The notes under the pieces: model-generated
Databases searched by the model: none
Seen by the model: the letters and a program-made list of their open reading frames with translations, nothing else
Told to the model about the DNA's origin: nothing
Translations under genes and position numbers: made by a program
Shown here: piece by piece, positions 2,327 to 8,409 of the stretch
Numbering within the stretch: position 1 is the first letter of the stretch
Layout: every line of letters starts with the position of its first letter
Source of the DNA: Escherichia coli
Lineage (GTDB): Bacteria; Pseudomonadota; Gammaproteobacteria; Enterobacterales; Enterobacteriaceae
Assembly (NCBI RefSeq): GCF_030013205.1
Contig: NZ_CP122648.1
Strand: one strand, 5' to 3'
DNA: 64,000 nt

Positions 2327-2430
2327 TTTTGCTCCTTTGTATGTGGTACGCATACATAGTATTTAGGTACGCATTGATAGTCAATAGATACCTACATATC
2401 CTGTGGTAAAAAATTATTCAGGATGCGCCG

Positions 2431-2682
2431 ATGTCTGATCGTAAGTACAAAAACCCTCAAGTGAATCTGAGGCTTCCTGTAGAGATAAAGGAACGTCTTA
2501 TTGAACTGGCTGAGGCTAATTCTCGTTCATTAAATGCTGAGATGGTCGCAGCACTTGAAGCATGGACCGAAAAAAACAAACACATTCAAGCACTAGATCT
2601 TGCAACTATAGCATCGCGACTGATAGAGCTTGAGCATGATGTTGAGAAGTTAAAATGCATGCATGGCAATGGTGAAAAATGA
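2431..2682 (+). CDS. mnt: Mnt-like ribbon-helix-helix repressor
   Basis: 83 aa; N-terminal NLRLPVEIKERLIELAEANSRSLNAEMVAAL resembles the recalled P22 Mnt RHH motif; divergent from arc-ant. Confidence 0.7.
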   Translation: MSDRKYKNPQVNLRLPVEIKERLIELAEANSRSLNAEMVAALEAWTEKNKHIQALDLATIASRLIELEHDVEKLKCMHGNGEK

Positions 2683-2996
2683 AACGTATCGCTATCCTAT
2701 TGCTCCTGTGTCTCTCGAGCATAGCTAACGCAGAAACAAAATCAGACGATAGCAGTTTTGATGAAATACAAGGCCTCATGATAGCTTCGAAAATGGCTGG
2801 TATGTGTGGTGCAATCAAACAAATGGCAATATTCCAAGAATCTACAAACATGCCGGGTGGGAATGAATTCTTGCAGAGATTCCTTACTACAGAGCAAGCA
2901 AGGCTTGGGATGACTCCGCAGCAATTTCTTGAAGCATGTCAGAAATCAATCTCTATTTATACCACCTATTACAATATGAGCTCTGAGAAAAAATAG
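2679..2996 (+). CDS. Secreted protein of unknown function (moron)
   Basis: 105 aa with a signal peptide MKRIAILLLLCLSSIANA. Its ATG overlaps the mnt stop (ATGA). Confidence 0.55.
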   Translation: MKRIAILLLLCLSSIANAETKSDDSSFDEIQGLMIASKMAGMCGAIKQMAIFQESTNMPGGNEFLQRFLTTEQARLGMTPQQFLEACQKSISIYTTYYNMSSEKK

Positions 2997-3005
2997 ACTA
3001 GGATT

Positions 3006-3191
3006 TCAACAACTTCCGCGTCCCTGAGTAATTCTGTCGCGGATTTGCTTCTTACGGTGATTTAAGCTGGAGAGTTTGGCTTCTGCTTCTGATATTTGCG
3101 CATCCAGATCTTTAAGTTCAAGCTCTGAAAGTCGCTGGTCAAGCAGGGTTTGGTTTAACTCAATGTTGTTCAGACGTTCTTCTATAGTCAT
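3006..3191 (-). CDS. Small coiled-coil protein, hypothetical
   Basis: 61-aa ORF with AAGGT RBS; Leu/Glu heptad-rich sequence. Confidence 0.35.
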   Translation of the reverse strand: MTIEERLNNIELNQTLLDQRLSELELKDLDAQISEAEAKLSSLNHRKKQIRDRITQGRGSC

Positions 3192-3216
3192 ATTGTTACC
3201 TTAGTGGGAGATTAGT

Positions 3217-3441
3217 ATGATTTCTGCTATTTTATCGGTGCTGCTAGCGTCATTATTCATCGGAGTGGTGTTGATCTCCCCGATGCCAATAATATCAATA
3301 TTATTCATCTTGATGATCGGCTGGTTGTGGCTTAAAAAGGCAAGAAACGATTATTTTTTATCCATAAGAGATAAGCAATTAGAGCTTTTCCGCTTGGGGT
3401 ACACTGGCGACTTGCCATTCTTAACATACCAAAAAAAGTAA
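3217..3441 (+). CDS. Small membrane protein (2 predicted TM helices), hypothetical
   Basis: 74 aa, hydrophobic N-terminal two thirds and basic tail; GGGAG RBS; followed by a terminator hairpin. Confidence 0.5.
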   Translation: MISAILSVLLASLFIGVVLISPMPIISILFILMIGWLWLKKARNDYFLSIRDKQLELFRLGYTGDLPFLTYQKK

Positions 3442-3447
3442 TAATCA

Positions 3448-3470
3448 AGCCGGTTCACTCCGGCTTTTTG
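3448..3470 (+). terminator. Intrinsic terminator after the 74-aa membrane protein gene
   Basis: Hairpin AGCCGG-TTCACT-CCGGCT followed by TTTTT. Confidence 0.5.
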
Positions 3471-3820
3471 ATATGTCGCTCGCAGAACTCAACAAGCCTG
3501 CTCATTAAGTAGCAGTAAGTCTCGTTGGCTCTTCCTGGTTCAACATCAACACCTACCCTTGAGCAGATATCGAATGCCATGTGAGCGCACTCATGGGCAA
3601 TAGTAGATAGTTTGCCATTGAACACGCCTATCACATGCAAAACACCATTCTCGCTACTCATTGTATGAGACGCTCCGTTGGCGTCCGAGTCATGCACGTC
3701 AACGCCAAGTTTTTGATGCAGGCGTTGCCATTCTGGAAAGTCTCTACAAAACACAATTGTACCGCTCTCAAAGAGCGGAACGAGCATCTTTGGTACGTTT
3801 CCAATGTTAACTTTTTTCAT
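3455..3820 (-). CDS. Small HExxH-motif protein, putative zinc metallopeptidase-like (moron)
   Basis: 121 aa containing IAHECAHMAFD (HExxH) and several Cys/His residues; AGGA RBS. No homolog recalled. Confidence 0.55.
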   Translation of the reverse strand: MKKVNIGNVPKMLVPLFESGTIVFCRDFPEWQRLHQKLGVDVHDSDANGASHTMSSENGVLHVIGVFNGKLSTIAHECAHMAFDICSRVGVDVEPGRANETYCYLMSRLVEFCERHIKKPE

Positions 3821-3850
3821 GGTATCCTGCGCAAAACTAAGGAGGTTGGT

Positions 3851-4039
3851 GTGAAGAAAAAATTTGTAAACGTTGCAAAGTGCGCAATTTTTATATTTTT
3901 TATGACCTTTTACGGATTTAGTGCCGGAGAAGGTTTCGATCGTGATGCCAATGCATTCAGTTTCTTTTGTCTGTCTATAGTGGTCATAATTGTATGGGTG
4001 GAATTAAAGCAAACATTGTTTCATGTGCTAGGGAAATAA
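3851..4039 (+). CDS. Small membrane protein (about 62 aa, GTG start), hypothetical
   Basis: Strong RBS AAGGAGG 5 nt before GTG; two hydrophobic segments (AIFIFFMTFYGF, FFCLSIVVIIVWV); AT-rich. It is the 3' part of track ORF 3635..4039. Confidence 0.4.
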   Translation: MKKKFVNVAKCAIFIFFMTFYGFSAGEGFDRDANAFSFFCLSIVVIIVWVELKQTLFHVLGK

Positions 4040-4056
4040 CCATCCATGGCTTTCCG

Positions 4057-6321
4057 TTACTTCTGGTTATCATCACTGTTCATCCAGTACATGATGCCTA
4101 GCCTTGATATGGTTTTCTTATCTGATTCTGGAAGTGAGTTGTAAAACGAGCGCCAAGCAGAAGAGCGTCTTACAGTTGTATCAACGATGCTTTCTGGTGC
4201 TTGTTTTACTGCCAGCCTTGCTGCTTTCTGGAATTCTGGTGAGCTAATTAGCTTTTCTGCAGATTCAATTGATTCAGCGCCGCCCATCGCCCTGATTTTG
4301 CTGGCGACTTTTGCCCCAATTTCTGACCCAGCAACAGCACCTACTGCACTGAACGGTCCTGACACAGTTGAACCAACCGCAGTGCCAATGCGTTGGGCAT
4401 GGTTAGCAACAAATTCATTTGCCGCAGTGACGCGATTAAACCGTTTGACGAACTCGTTTAGTCTTCCTGTAGTTATCTCGTAAGATTTTGCGTCTTTGAT
4501 AGCCTTTGCGACCTTATATACATCGTTCAGACCTGACATAGTCTCTTTTGGTAAATGTCGGGCAAGATTGCGCATCTGCCCGTTTGCTAACATGTTTTGA
4601 TACCAGTCAGCAAACCCTGCAGGATTAAAATCAGCGCCACGTTTTCCGTTCGAAAGCATATCCCGAAGACCTGTTCCCAGTAGCTCGGTTCTTAGCTTCC
4701 TGGACGGCGTGTTTTGCATCAATTCACGAAATCCTTTGGCATCGCCTTTCGACATTGCCTGTAGTGCTGTAGTTGCTTTGCGAGAAACATCACCGTTCAG
4801 CGTTCTGCCAGTTAGATTAATCATTTGCTCTTCCATGCTTTTTCGCATCTGAACAAGCCTCTGAGCAACTTCAAAATCACGTAATGCATTTGTCTCTGAC
4901 AGCGCCGCCTTTTGATCATCGGCGAGCGAACCGTAAAGCCTCGATAAAGCAGCGCGATCAGCATCTTTATATGGTCCAGAATTCTTATGAAGTGCATCAC
5001 CAACAAGTCGTCGTTGCTTATTGAGATTTGCATAAGTTAATGCGCCGTTCTTGCCTGGATTAATTGCCCGAAAGACTCTCTTTTCAATAGGGTCAAGGTT
5101 TTTCATCCCGCCAAGATCTTCTGCCACCTGTTTGAGCATTGACCTTGTTGATGGCGCATCAATTTTTGCACCTGCAGGCATCGCCTTTTCAACATTGCGA
5201 TAAAGCTGGTCGCTTCGTTTCATCAGCGCAGACATTCTTCCATTGACCGTATCAATAAACTTGTCGCTCATACCAAGAGCATCTTTTGCACCGGAAACGC
5301 GATCAATTATCTCCCCCGCGCCCTGTGCTAGCTGCCTGATTGCTTCATTTTCCTGCACCTGTAGAGCAGAACCCGCACGGGACTTGATTGCTTGCTCAAC
5401 TGCCTTGTATTGCTCGTTCCCGGAAAAGTGTGAAGGGAGTAATGAATCAACATTAAGCCTTTCAGCAGACTCCAGAACTTCAGCCTGAGGATTGATATCT
5501 AGTTCATCAAGCGATGAAGCGAGATTTGGCCTTTTTTGTGCTGCTACTGTGCGAACGACTTCCTCTGGGTTCCTCGTCGCAGGAGTCATTGGTACACCTT
5601 GTGCTGCTCTTGCCTCTGCGGCATGAACCGCAGGATTTGTTGCCTCTGCGGCATCACCGGAGAATGGTGATGTTTCTGTTGGCGCAGTGGTCGCTCTCTG
5701 TGCAGATGTTTTATTGCCACTAATTATATTTGATGCACCACGAACACCACGGGTAACGCCATTTATCAGGCCATGCGTAGCAATGTTAAGTCCGGCATTA
5801 ATAGCGGCATTTTCGGCAAAATCACCCTCCTGATTTGCAGCATCAGCAAGAGAACCTGCAATCATGTTTCCTGCGGAACCGATGTCTCCTGCGAGCTTTG
5901 CTGGCGCTCCAGCAACTTTTGCCGCTGTGCCAATTGGCAGGAGATACCCACCAATTGTTTCACCGGCTTGCGCCCAAGGGTCTGTCGGTCGATCGACAGG
6001 GCGATAAACATCATCCAAAACCTTGGGGCCACCAAGCCCCTGGCTGATTGCATTAATCAGACTTGCGCCACCCTGCAATACGTCAAATGGTATGTTTACC
6101 AGACCACGACCAGCCTGTTCTGCAATTTGCCCTGCGCTTTGACCACCAGTGAGCCAGTCAGTAGCTTTTCCCACCAGAGATTGTTCTTCTGGCTGCGATT
6201 GGTTTTGAGTGGATTGATCACCAGAAGACAGCATCTGAGCAATGCGACGTGCTCCCTCAGTATCGCCGGCAGCATCAGCATTCCTTAACGCCGTCATCAA
6301 CTGTTCACGACTATAGGCCAT
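4057..6321 (-). CDS. DNA ejection/transfer protein (P22 gp16-like by synteny)
   Basis: 754-aa ORF directly downstream of the gp20-like gene; Gly/Ala-rich segments. Confidence 0.7.
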
Positions 6322-7706
6322 TACTGCTCTCCGAGATATTTGCTAATTAATTCGTCATCGGACAATTGCTGTTGAGGTTGGCTATCGCCATAACTTGAGG
6401 AAAGAAAACGTTTTGCCGCAGAGTTCAATGACTCACCCTTCTTAACATCCATCCCCATGATGTTTCGGTTGCGATCAGATTGTCCTGGGCTGCCATTTGC
6501 ACTCATCCACTCTGACTTAAACTCGTTGAACTTCGCGTTATTACTTTCCATTTTTGCCATACCCCTTAACCATCGAGCCATGACCATTGGATTATCCGTT
6601 TCGCTTGGAATGCCTTTCCTTGCAAACTCAATATCCTTATCTGATGCAGGGCCGGGAGGGAGAAGCTTGGTTGCCTGCGCATTGGCTAGTTGGTTGAATC
6701 TAATCCGCATATCTCGGAGGTAGTTATCTTGCCCCGTAAGCTTAGAGAACATATTTTCAGCGTTACCGAACAAACCAGGAGTTGGCTTCTCCTTCTCCAG
6801 CGTGTCAGCGAGCGTTGTCATTGAATCGGCAGCATTACGACTAGCTGCCGCATCACCTGCTGATTTTTCTATAGCCTTTTCCATGTTCACTGATAATTTT
6901 GGCGCTGCATTAATAAGTTTCTCGGCCTTTTTTTGTGCCTGTTGTACTTCAAAACCGAATTTCTGCTTATCAAGTGCCAGTCTTTCTGCTGCAAGTCCGT
7001 GTCCGGTCATTGCAGACTGATAGGAAAGGTTTTGCCCCCTAATAGCCCTCGCATTCGTCATGTCATTATTGCGAATGGTTTCGTTAATTCTTTGCTGTTC
7101 CTGCTGGCGACCAACCATCTTATCCTGAACAGCAAACGCCTTTTCTGGTCCAAGCGCACCGAGAGACATAGTAGTCAGCATGTGTGATAGCTGCTCTGGA
7201 TTCTGGATACCTGTCTGAATCATCCAGTCAGCATTAGCACCAACGCGATTTAACCTGTCCTTGTTGTCAGTAATGAATTTACTGTAGGCTTCCGGCCCCT
7301 GAGAAAGAGCGACGTTAGCTCTCATGGCTAAATCGCCCATATCGTTGCGTTGCTGATCATTAAGACCTGAAAAAGCCTGTTGTGCCTGTGCAACAAACGC
7401 TGGATTTTCCTGGGCAAACTTAAATAGTCCCGATGGATCACCAGAAGCCCATGCATCAGCGTGAACCTTATTGAACGCCCTAATCGCTTTCTGTTGCTGT
7501 TCCTGCTTATAAATATCAGCAACTCCAGCCAGACCACGTAACGCGGTCAGACTAACGTTATTTGCACCTGATCGAGACAGTTCATTGTTTTCGCGGATCA
7601 GACCAAGCGTTGCATTAATGTCGCTTGCCTTTGGCGCATTCTCGTTTTGCGCACCAATGCCAGCCAGAAAACCACCAGAATTAATACCCTGTTGCCACGT
7701 AGCCAT
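6321..7706 (-). CDS. DNA ejection/transfer protein (P22 gp20-like)
   Basis: 461 aa, the size of P22 gp20, in the gp7-gp20-gp16 order. Confidence 0.7.
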
Positions 7707-7716
7707 TGATTACCCC

Positions 7717-8409
7717 TTAAAACAGTGAACCAAGCAGACCAAGACCAGCACCGATACCAGCACCCCACGGAGTTGATAGCTCGAGAGCACTGGCTATGCC
7801 ACCACCCAAAAGCGCACCGGATGCAGCACCACTAACCCCCTGCTGCAATGCTGACGGTCGGTTGGCATTTGCCGCAGCCAGCGCCGCGCTTTGCTGTGAA
7901 ATCTGACTCATGTTGTTGGCATATGTTTGCCCGGCGTTTGCCTGCCCCTGAAGAGCGCCAAGACCGATATTTGCCAGGTTGTTGTAATTGTTCATTTGTC
8001 CAGATAGCCATTGCTGACCAAGCGTTGGTGCGATTGTTGCTAACTGATTACTGGTTGCGGTGGAACCCAATCCACCTGTTGCTTCCGCTGCCGCAAGACT
8101 CTGATAGCGAGCCTGACCTGAAAGGTCTTTATACTGCTGAGAGTTGTAATACTGGTTAAGTGCCTGACCTTGCCCTTCCAGAGACGATAAGTTCTCGAGG
8201 CTGCCGACATACTTATCAGCCAGAGGAGTAAACGGCTTCAGGTTGTTCATGATGGTGTTGAACTGCTGATTTTGCAGGTCTGCTGCATACTTCTGAGCTT
8301 CTGCGGCATACTTTGCACTTTTATCAGAACTGCCACCTTTCCCGCCTTTTTCAGGGCAATAAGGTTCCTCGCCGCGCAGTTTTCTGCCCAGCTTAAATGC
8401 ATATAACAT
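7717..8409 (-). CDS. DNA ejection/transfer protein (P22 gp7-like)
   Basis: 230 aa starting MLYAFKLGRKLRGEEP with a Gly-rich C-terminus, recalled as typical of P22-like gp7. Confidence 0.7.
   Translation of the reverse strand: MLYAFKLGRKLRGEEPYCPEKGGKGGSSDKSAKYAAEAQKYAADLQNQQFNTIMNNLKPFTPLADKYVGSLENLSSLEGQGQALNQYYNSQQYKDLSGQARYQSLAAAEATGGLGSTATSNQLATIAPTLGQQWLSGQMNNYNNLANIGLGALQGQANAGQTYANNMSQISQQSAALAAANANRPSALQQGVSGAASGALLGGGIASALELSTPWGAGIGAGLGLLGSLF

Follow-up and report, generated by a model that had tools for sequence, protein, structure and literature searches.

Two conserved small membrane-protein genes in the ant moron of a P22-like Escherichia coli prophage, one of them a candidate exclusion gene in the sieA slot

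Between gene 16 and the tailspike gene, P22-like phages carry the immunity-I (immI) region, which has been named the "ant moron", a hypervariable and independently expressed insertion in the late operon (Villafane et al., PMC2629481). Among the products of this region in Salmonella phage P22 is the exclusion protein SieA, of 160–210 amino acids (aa) with 3–4 transmembrane (TM) helices, which occurs as three types (A, B and C) with the common motif FxRYPxEAxxFNK and whose escape mutations fall in the C-terminal parts of gp16 and gp20 (PMC10883804). Moving P22 sieA to galK with 85 bp of upstream DNA was sufficient for exclusion (Leavitt et al., PMC10883804). Here, we analyze a 64,000-nucleotide stretch of Escherichia coli DNA (contig NZ_CP122648.1 of assembly GCF_030013205.1; hereafter the window), which is a P22-like prophage, and describe two small open reading frames (ORFs) in its immI region that lie on either side of hkcC (3455–3820, − strand), the gene of a 121-aa HExxH protein. 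The ORF of 62 aa (3851–4039, + strand) and the ORF of 74 aa (3217–3441, + strand) are, on the evidence of their substitution patterns, real protein-coding genes for predicted small two-helix membrane proteins, and each occupies a conserved slot of the moron as an independent cassette. The 62-aa gene lies in the slot that holds sieA in P22, and its product is a good candidate, by analogy of position, for a minimal exclusion protein.

The gene order of the window matches the maps of both P22 and E. coli phage HK620. In the annotated P22 record, the tailspike gene 9 is followed by ant and arc (both leftward), mnt and orf59a (both rightward, ending at a terminator), hkcC (leftward), sieA (rightward), and genes 16, 20 and 7 (all leftward); the annotated HK620 record has the same layout and orientations with hkcB instead of sieA. 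Both small ORFs lie within this moron, between gene 16 and the tailspike gene, and the 62-aa gene, like P22 sieA (PF26849), stands last in the ant moron, where it is adjacent to and convergent with gene 16 and thus lies between genes 16 and 9. Convergence with gene 16 was found in every lineage examined, including the most distant (32% identity), and the 62-aa gene is the last one before the 3′ end of gene 16 except in loci L052 and L053, where a 95-aa ORF stands between. In the window, 17 bp separate its stop codon from the end of gene 16, and in L054 and L055 no gene other than a 61-aa homologue lies between gene 16 and the tailspike gene. Furthermore, the products of the 62-aa gene and of sieA are predicted inner-membrane proteins of P22-like prophages, and the two genes exclude each other in the sampled loci: type A sieA, type B sieA and hkcB were all absent from the ~46 loci carrying a 62-aa homologue.

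The likeness to the sieA locus extends to the DNA around the 62-aa gene. By alignment, the 85 bp upstream of its start (3766–3850, + strand) are nearly identical to the 85 bp that precede P22 sieA and hold the putative promoter PsieA. The last part of this segment is a conserved intergenic linker of ~30 bp, GGTATCCTGCxCAAAACTAAGGAGGTTGGT (3821–3850, + strand), which is followed directly by the GTG start and includes a Shine-Dalgarno (SD) sequence, AAGGAGG (3839–3845, + strand), 5 nt before it, so that the GTG start with a strong ribosome-binding site that had been proposed in an earlier reading of these letters alone (the sequence-only reading) is borne out. The full linker, ribosome-binding site and GTG are common to most 62-aa loci, P22 sieA and HK620 hkcB, and homology of the 62-aa locus to the sieA and hkcB loci ends exactly at the start codon; in HS1 sieA-B and the more diverged 62-aa loci, only a related form of the linker or the SD sequence is kept. 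Downstream, an inverted-repeat linker, CCATCCATGGC (4040–4050), separates the stop codons of the 62-aa gene and gene 16. Its consensus, (G/A)CCATCC(A/T)TGGC, follows nearly all members of the 62-aa family, and related sequences are GCCGTCCTTGGC of P22 and one within the terminal part of HK620 hkcB. The suggestion that a small hydrophobic protein of this kind might act in exclusion thereby gains support for the 62-aa gene, by analogy of position, from a P22 sieA slot with the same upstream 85 bp, ribosome-binding site and start codon.

These upstream sequences also bear on expression in the lysogen. A consensus promoter scan recovered no promoter for either small gene, so that expression is argued only from homology to P22 PsieA and from operon context. 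Since its upstream 85 bp are near-identical to those of P22, the 62-aa gene would inherit expression signals that function there. The 5′ end of hkcC overlaps, on the opposite strand, the region of the putative PsieA promoter of P22, with hkcC running in the direction of the late operon, and the start-to-start spacing of hkcC and the 62-aa ORF, estimated earlier at about 25–30 bp, measures 30 bp. The 62-aa gene of other prophages closes the mnt operon, as in Serratia, where mnt is followed by a Rap1a gene and then, after a gap of 1 nt, by the start of the 62-aa gene; such a placement implies, as far as gene order can, expression in the lysogen.

The coding nature of the 62-aa gene was evident across its family. 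The frame was intact in 46 of the 46 loci collected, the ratio of nonsynonymous to synonymous change (pN/pS), taken only from pairs with unsaturated synonymous sites, was 0.17–0.37, and the start alternated between GTG and ATG at one site behind the conserved SD sequence. Homologues of exactly 62 aa with 79–82% identity occur in Salmonella and Serratia, and when 1.8 billion representative proteins were searched exhaustively with a profile, metagenomic relatives of 61–66 aa at 32–53% identity joined them, so gene length is held at 61–66 codons down to 32% identity; a scan of GTDB representative genomes found no relatives of the family. The sole PHROG matched was phrog_21338, with residues 1–62 of the protein on profile positions 1–62 (E 4.3e-45), a family without functional annotation. 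The 62-aa family is a known but unnamed PHROG; the genomic region is familiar, and so is this kind of cargo, in which the moron encodes a membrane protein at the sieA slot. Among 5,426 complete E. coli genomes, the 62-aa gene was present in 88, full-length hkcB in about 82 and HS1-type sieA (type B) in 21, which makes the 62-aa gene, scarcely ever annotated though it is, ~4 times commoner than the last; three isolated phages (phiv205-1, UPF_BP1 and JEP4) carry it as well.

The 62-aa protein has a Lys-rich N-terminus, a first TM helix at residues ~8–25, a short acidic loop (GEGFDRD), a second TM helix at ~36–50 and a W-x-E-[LI]-K motif. AlphaFold2 modeled it as a helical hairpin (residues 2–25 and 30–59) with a mean predicted local distance difference test score (pLDDT) of 85.7, and Kyte-Doolittle profiles agreed with the models in giving two hydrophobic helices to each of the two small proteins, as the sequence-only reading had described them. 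Read with the positive-inside rule, the Lys-rich N-terminus, the acidic loop and the terminal motif suggest an N-in/C-in hairpin whose W-x-E-[LI]-K end would be cytoplasmic. Conserved residues K10, F14, M18 and G22 form one face of helix 1, and further conservation falls on S37, F38, I43, I46, I47, W49, E51 and K53. A cleavable signal peptide or lipobox was considered and rejected, as neither an AxA nor an L-x-x-C is conserved across the family.

The 74-aa gene (SD GGGAG at 3206–3210, + strand, 6 nt before its ATG) also shows a coding pattern. Compared with its most distant copy, in locus L014 (15% diverged), 34 of 225 nt differ, distributed over codon positions 1, 2 and 3 as 10, 1 and 23, which leaves only six residue changes, all conservative, and a pN/pS of 0.10; the other two frames of the region contain stops, and the L014 copy has GTG at the same start site with GGAGG at the same distance. 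The earlier reading had allowed that conservation might prove these ORFs non-coding; the substitution patterns are those of coding sequence for both. The 74-aa protein has hydrophobic helices at ~2–20 and ~22–39 with SPMP between them, followed by a basic tail that is probably cytoplasmic, and AlphaFold2 placed helices at residues 2–20 and 22–59 with a break at the Ser-Pro-Met-Pro (pLDDT 77). It had no match in PHROGs, its relatives in the large protein database are close ones only (92–99% identity), and the gene was found in 14 of the 5,426 complete E. coli genomes. Clues to its function are limited to its position, its pairing with a 61-aa coiled-coil ORF (3006–3191, − strand; phrog_7586) and a parallel pair elsewhere. 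The 61-aa ORF accompanies the 74-aa gene in every locus that has the latter; the two are divergent, with starts 25 bp apart, and their promoters would need to sit inside each other's coding regions. The parallel pair, in the distant P22-like prophage L021, has a like layout, with a 59-aa ORF (4542–4721, − strand) beside an unrelated 77-aa two-TM ORF (4741–4974, + strand), and the 59-aa and 61-aa ORFs begin with MTTEERI and MTIEERL, respectively. The pairing of such an ORF with a two-TM ORF may be a conserved two-gene module.

Like the 62-aa gene, the 74-aa gene is bounded by sequence common to other phages. At its 3′ end lies a linker, AAAAAGTAATAATC, with a bidirectional terminator hairpin (3433–3470, hairpin 3447–3466, located by alignment and terminator scan) that is equivalent to the annotated P22 tmnt and HK620 tORF59A; linker and terminator are common to P22 and HK620 despite an unrelated ORF upstream. 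P22 orf59a and its HK620 counterpart, annotated "HkcD", resemble the 74-aa gene in lying downstream of mnt and in ending in the ...AAAAAGTAA junction with the bidirectional terminator. However, the DNA shared by orf59a and the 74-aa gene comprises only the last two codons, the stop codon and the terminator, and the orf59a product is a soluble, Gly/Lys-rich protein of 59 aa that lacks a hydrophobic segment and has no similarity to the 74-aa protein. The GCCATCCATGGC element is found in L021 ahead of the 64-aa homologue of the 62-aa protein instead.

With conserved junctions on both sides, each ORF is a cassette, the 74-aa gene in the orf59a slot and the 62-aa gene in the sieA slot, and the short linkers that bound the cassettes are likely recombination junctions. 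The sequence-only reading had placed the two ORFs correctly, in coordinates, features and the convergent arrangement of the 74-aa ORF with hkcC (stops 13 bp apart), and had described them as flanking the HExxH gene. A unit framed in this way was not supported, and for the 62-aa gene the link to hkcC is incidental. About ten unrelated neighbors were found upstream of the 62-aa gene, including hkcC, LexA/S24-type repressor-like proteins, a Rap1a-type type VI secretion system (T6SS) immunity protein, two different lipoproteins, a Fic protein, a PIN protein, a P63C protein, a 149-aa ORF and small membrane ORFs, and hkcC is present in P22 and HK620 without either small ORF. We therefore dropped the reading of a three-gene unit with hkcC: both ORFs are independent cassettes in conserved slots of hypervariable cargo. 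As for hkcC itself, it is ~99% identical in P22, HK620, Salmonella prophages and the window while its neighbors vary; its product has HECAH at residues 76–80, its only match was phrog_1365 (unannotated), and no Pfam, NCBIfam or PADLOC match was found. One identical 189-nt allele of the 62-aa gene was present in 20 loci beside very different types of gene 16, and this distribution speaks for a recent horizontal spread of the gene and against its co-evolution with gp16.

Comparison with characterized proteins sets the 62-aa family apart. Whereas SieA proteins have 160–210 aa and 3–4 TM helices, the 62-aa protein has 62 residues and two, and FxRYPxEAxxFNK is absent from it. BLASTP of the small proteins against SieA-A, SieA-B, HkcB, orf59a, a 161-aa lipoprotein and gp16 returned chance matches only, and hhalign gave the 74-aa protein a probability of 0.25% against the alignment of SieA types A and B. 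Membership of the 62-aa protein in the SieA family was rejected for lack of similarity, wrong size and absence of the motif. HkcB of HK620, also carried by phage epsilon34, is an alternative occupant of the sieA slot behind the same linker and GTG, and it too begins with a hydrophobic helix, but it is longer (109 aa), has a single TM helix at the N-terminus and then a coiled coil, and shows no sequence similarity; among our loci, tblastn found hkcB in HK620 only. Small inner-membrane proteins encoded by other phages, T4 Imm and HK97 gp15, block DNA entry, the latter as a prophage-expressed moron. Both are listed as exclusion proteins (PMC11436027). PHROGs detected no sequence relationship between them and the 62-aa protein, and both the type of host phage and the presumed target differ. 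Scans of Pfam and NCBIfam returned nothing meaningful for either small protein, neither matched PADLOC at E<=1, and our literature search found no study of these ORFs, of hkcB or hkcC function, or of PHROG 21338.

We consider it the best explanation, at a probability of roughly 0.4 and by analogy with SieA, that the 62-aa protein is made in the lysogen, resides in the inner membrane and hinders the entry of DNA from superinfecting P22-like phages. Briefly, the gene would be transcribed from PsieA-type signals inside hkcC, or from the mnt operon in other prophages; its product would insert into the inner membrane as an N-in/C-in hairpin and there protect the lysogen by interfering with the DNA entry of superinfecting P22-like phages, with either the gp7/gp20/gp16 conduit or one of its host partners as the putative target. 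The 74-aa protein would likewise be a prophage-expressed membrane product of the moron, with a much narrower distribution. Several observations weigh against this explanation. The 62-aa protein had no similarity to any other characterized exclusion protein, with PHROGs, PADLOC and NCBIfam uninformative; hhalign gave its family a probability of 0.3% against the SieA A and B alignment, and no PF26849 or other Pfam match appeared at E<=0.1. Foldseek comparison of both AlphaFold models with the viral structures of BFVD likewise returned no match at E<=0.001, a null that is expected for bare helical hairpins. Slot sharing may reflect only recombination at conserved linkers, mutual exclusivity with sieA is expected of any two alleles in one slot, and other cargo of the same moron (Rap1a, Fic, PIN, P63C and repressor-like proteins) is not related to exclusion. 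Moreover, the single 189-nt allele beside very different gene 16 types shows no sign of co-evolution with gp16, and for the 74-aa gene position is the only functional clue. The bolder form of the SieA-like explanation, in which the 62-aa family would be a fourth exclusion class in the sieA slot, non-homologous to SieA, with a hairpin of 62 residues enough to block the conduit or a host partner, we regard as possible but doubtful.

Among the alternatives, the one that survives best, though we hold it tentatively, is that both genes encode prophage-expressed small membrane proteins of lysogenic conversion with functions unrelated to exclusion, such as modulation of a transporter or sensor, tolerance of envelope stress or immunity to a competitor's effector. 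The company the 62-aa gene keeps is consistent with this, as the same moron carries a Rap1a-type T6SS immunity protein directly upstream of it in Serratia and Fic and PIN proteins elsewhere, and the conserved K10, F14, M18, G22, W49, E51 and K53, which line one face of a helix or sit at the interface with the cytoplasm, would fit binding to any membrane partner. It leaves unexplained, however, why the 62-aa gene is tightly and anciently linked to the end of an ejection-protein gene and why it replaces sieA, as an alternative allele, behind identical signals for expression.

The sequence-only reading had also raised abortive-infection effectors, toxins and holin-like proteins. Membrane-damaging roles of this sort, be it as the toxin in a toxin-antitoxin or an abortive-infection module or as a holin- or pinholin-like protein, we judge improbable. 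Small size and two TM helices suit both proteins to them, the 74-aa protein has a pinholin-like layout with a charged C-terminal tail, and the divergent 61-aa coiled-coil ORF 25 bp from its gene, with the parallel 59-aa/77-aa pair in L021, could be read as a toxin with its partner. Yet both genes lie outside the lysis cassette, and no holin family was matched in Pfam, PHROGs or NCBIfam and no toxin or abortive-infection system in PADLOC, Pfam or NCBIfam. The 62-aa gene has a near-consensus SD sequence and a lysogen-type promoter context, and in the minimal loci (L054 and L055) it stands alone, with no partner antitoxin seen; a constitutive toxin without antidote would face counter-selection, and 20 different prophage backgrounds hold the identical allele in intact form.

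Lower still in our estimation is a role in the phage's own cycle, in which the 62-aa protein would work with gene 16, for example by managing, at the inner membrane, the phage's own ejection proteins or conduit while infection proceeds or once the prophage is induced. The almost invariant position beside gene 16 across the family argues for such a role, and induction is reported to up-regulate P22 sieA (PMC10883804), but transcription of the 62-aa gene runs against that of the late operon, many viable P22-like phages, P22 and HK620 among them, do without the gene, and one allele of it pairs with unrelated types of gene 16. Finally, that one or both ORFs are untranslated chance frames in AT-rich spacer DNA, as their lack of annotation in the identical RefSeq record, in most other genomes and in three phage GenBank records and the many spurious ORFs of similar length in the window might suggest, is effectively refuted by a strong synonymous excess in exactly these frames, by length conservation down to 32% identity, by conserved SD and start sites and by ORF boundaries that coincide with mosaic junctions.

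The surrounding sequence is that of a P22-like prophage. Positions 2400–4400 are 100% identical to the chromosome of E. coli ETEC4079, and parts of them are 96–99% identical to P22, HK620 and many P22-like prophages. To the left lie ant (1184–2113, − strand), arc (2180–2353, − strand) and a gene for an mnt-like Arc-family repressor (2431–2682, + strand; so annotated in the identical RefSeq record and positioned as P22 mnt), the first gene of the rightward immI transcription unit that the prophage expresses. The next cargo gene encodes a 105-aa protein (2679–2996, + strand; full-length match to phrog_19844) with an N-terminal signal peptide that looks cleavable, and its start codon and the stop codon of mnt overlap (ATGA). 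In Serratia prophages (L008–L010, ~4643–4999), a Rap1a-family T6SS immunity protein (PF18602) lies between mnt and the 62-aa gene, and the equivalent positions of these two proteins suggest an mnt operon that carries periplasmic protective cargo. Across loci L004–L050, the 1.5 kb upstream of the 62-aa homologue, between mnt/ant and that gene, form a cargo hotspot with LexA/S24-type repressor-like proteins, Fic, PIN and P63C-domain proteins, two lipoprotein families and small membrane ORFs. In L004, the 62-aa gene and its linker are followed by an SD sequence (GGGAGG) and a 22-codon ORF, MVTVGWIIVALLVALWAKNRYY (5217–5285, + strand). This ORF, antisense to the last codons of gene 16, would encode a lone TM helix and may be either another mini-protein or a chance frame.

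To the right, the gene 16-type DNA-transfer (ejection) protein of 754 aa (4057–6321, − strand; phrog_770 and phrog_21143) is identified also by synteny with gene 20 (6321–7706, − strand) and gene 7 (7717–8409, − strand). Its ORF is intact, with a transglycosylase-like N-terminal match (phrog_29864, residues 28–186) in addition to the full DNA-transfer-protein match. The identical RefSeq record shows it only as an internal-fragment pseudogene ([quoted passage not shown]), a call that is probably an annotation artefact.

For the annotation of these prophages, the findings expose a gap, as RefSeq annotation leaves two conserved small-protein genes under selection out of most genomes that carry them, and the conserved linkers flanking each gene show the route by which cassettes are exchanged in this moron. 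The published model of how SieA blocks P22-type DNA delivery rests on large, very divergent proteins (PMC10883804). Were the proposed role of the 62-aa protein true, its hairpin of 62 residues would offer a far simpler probe of the interface between the conduit and the inner membrane, and the sieA slot would be a general "exclusion port" that holds several unrelated solutions.

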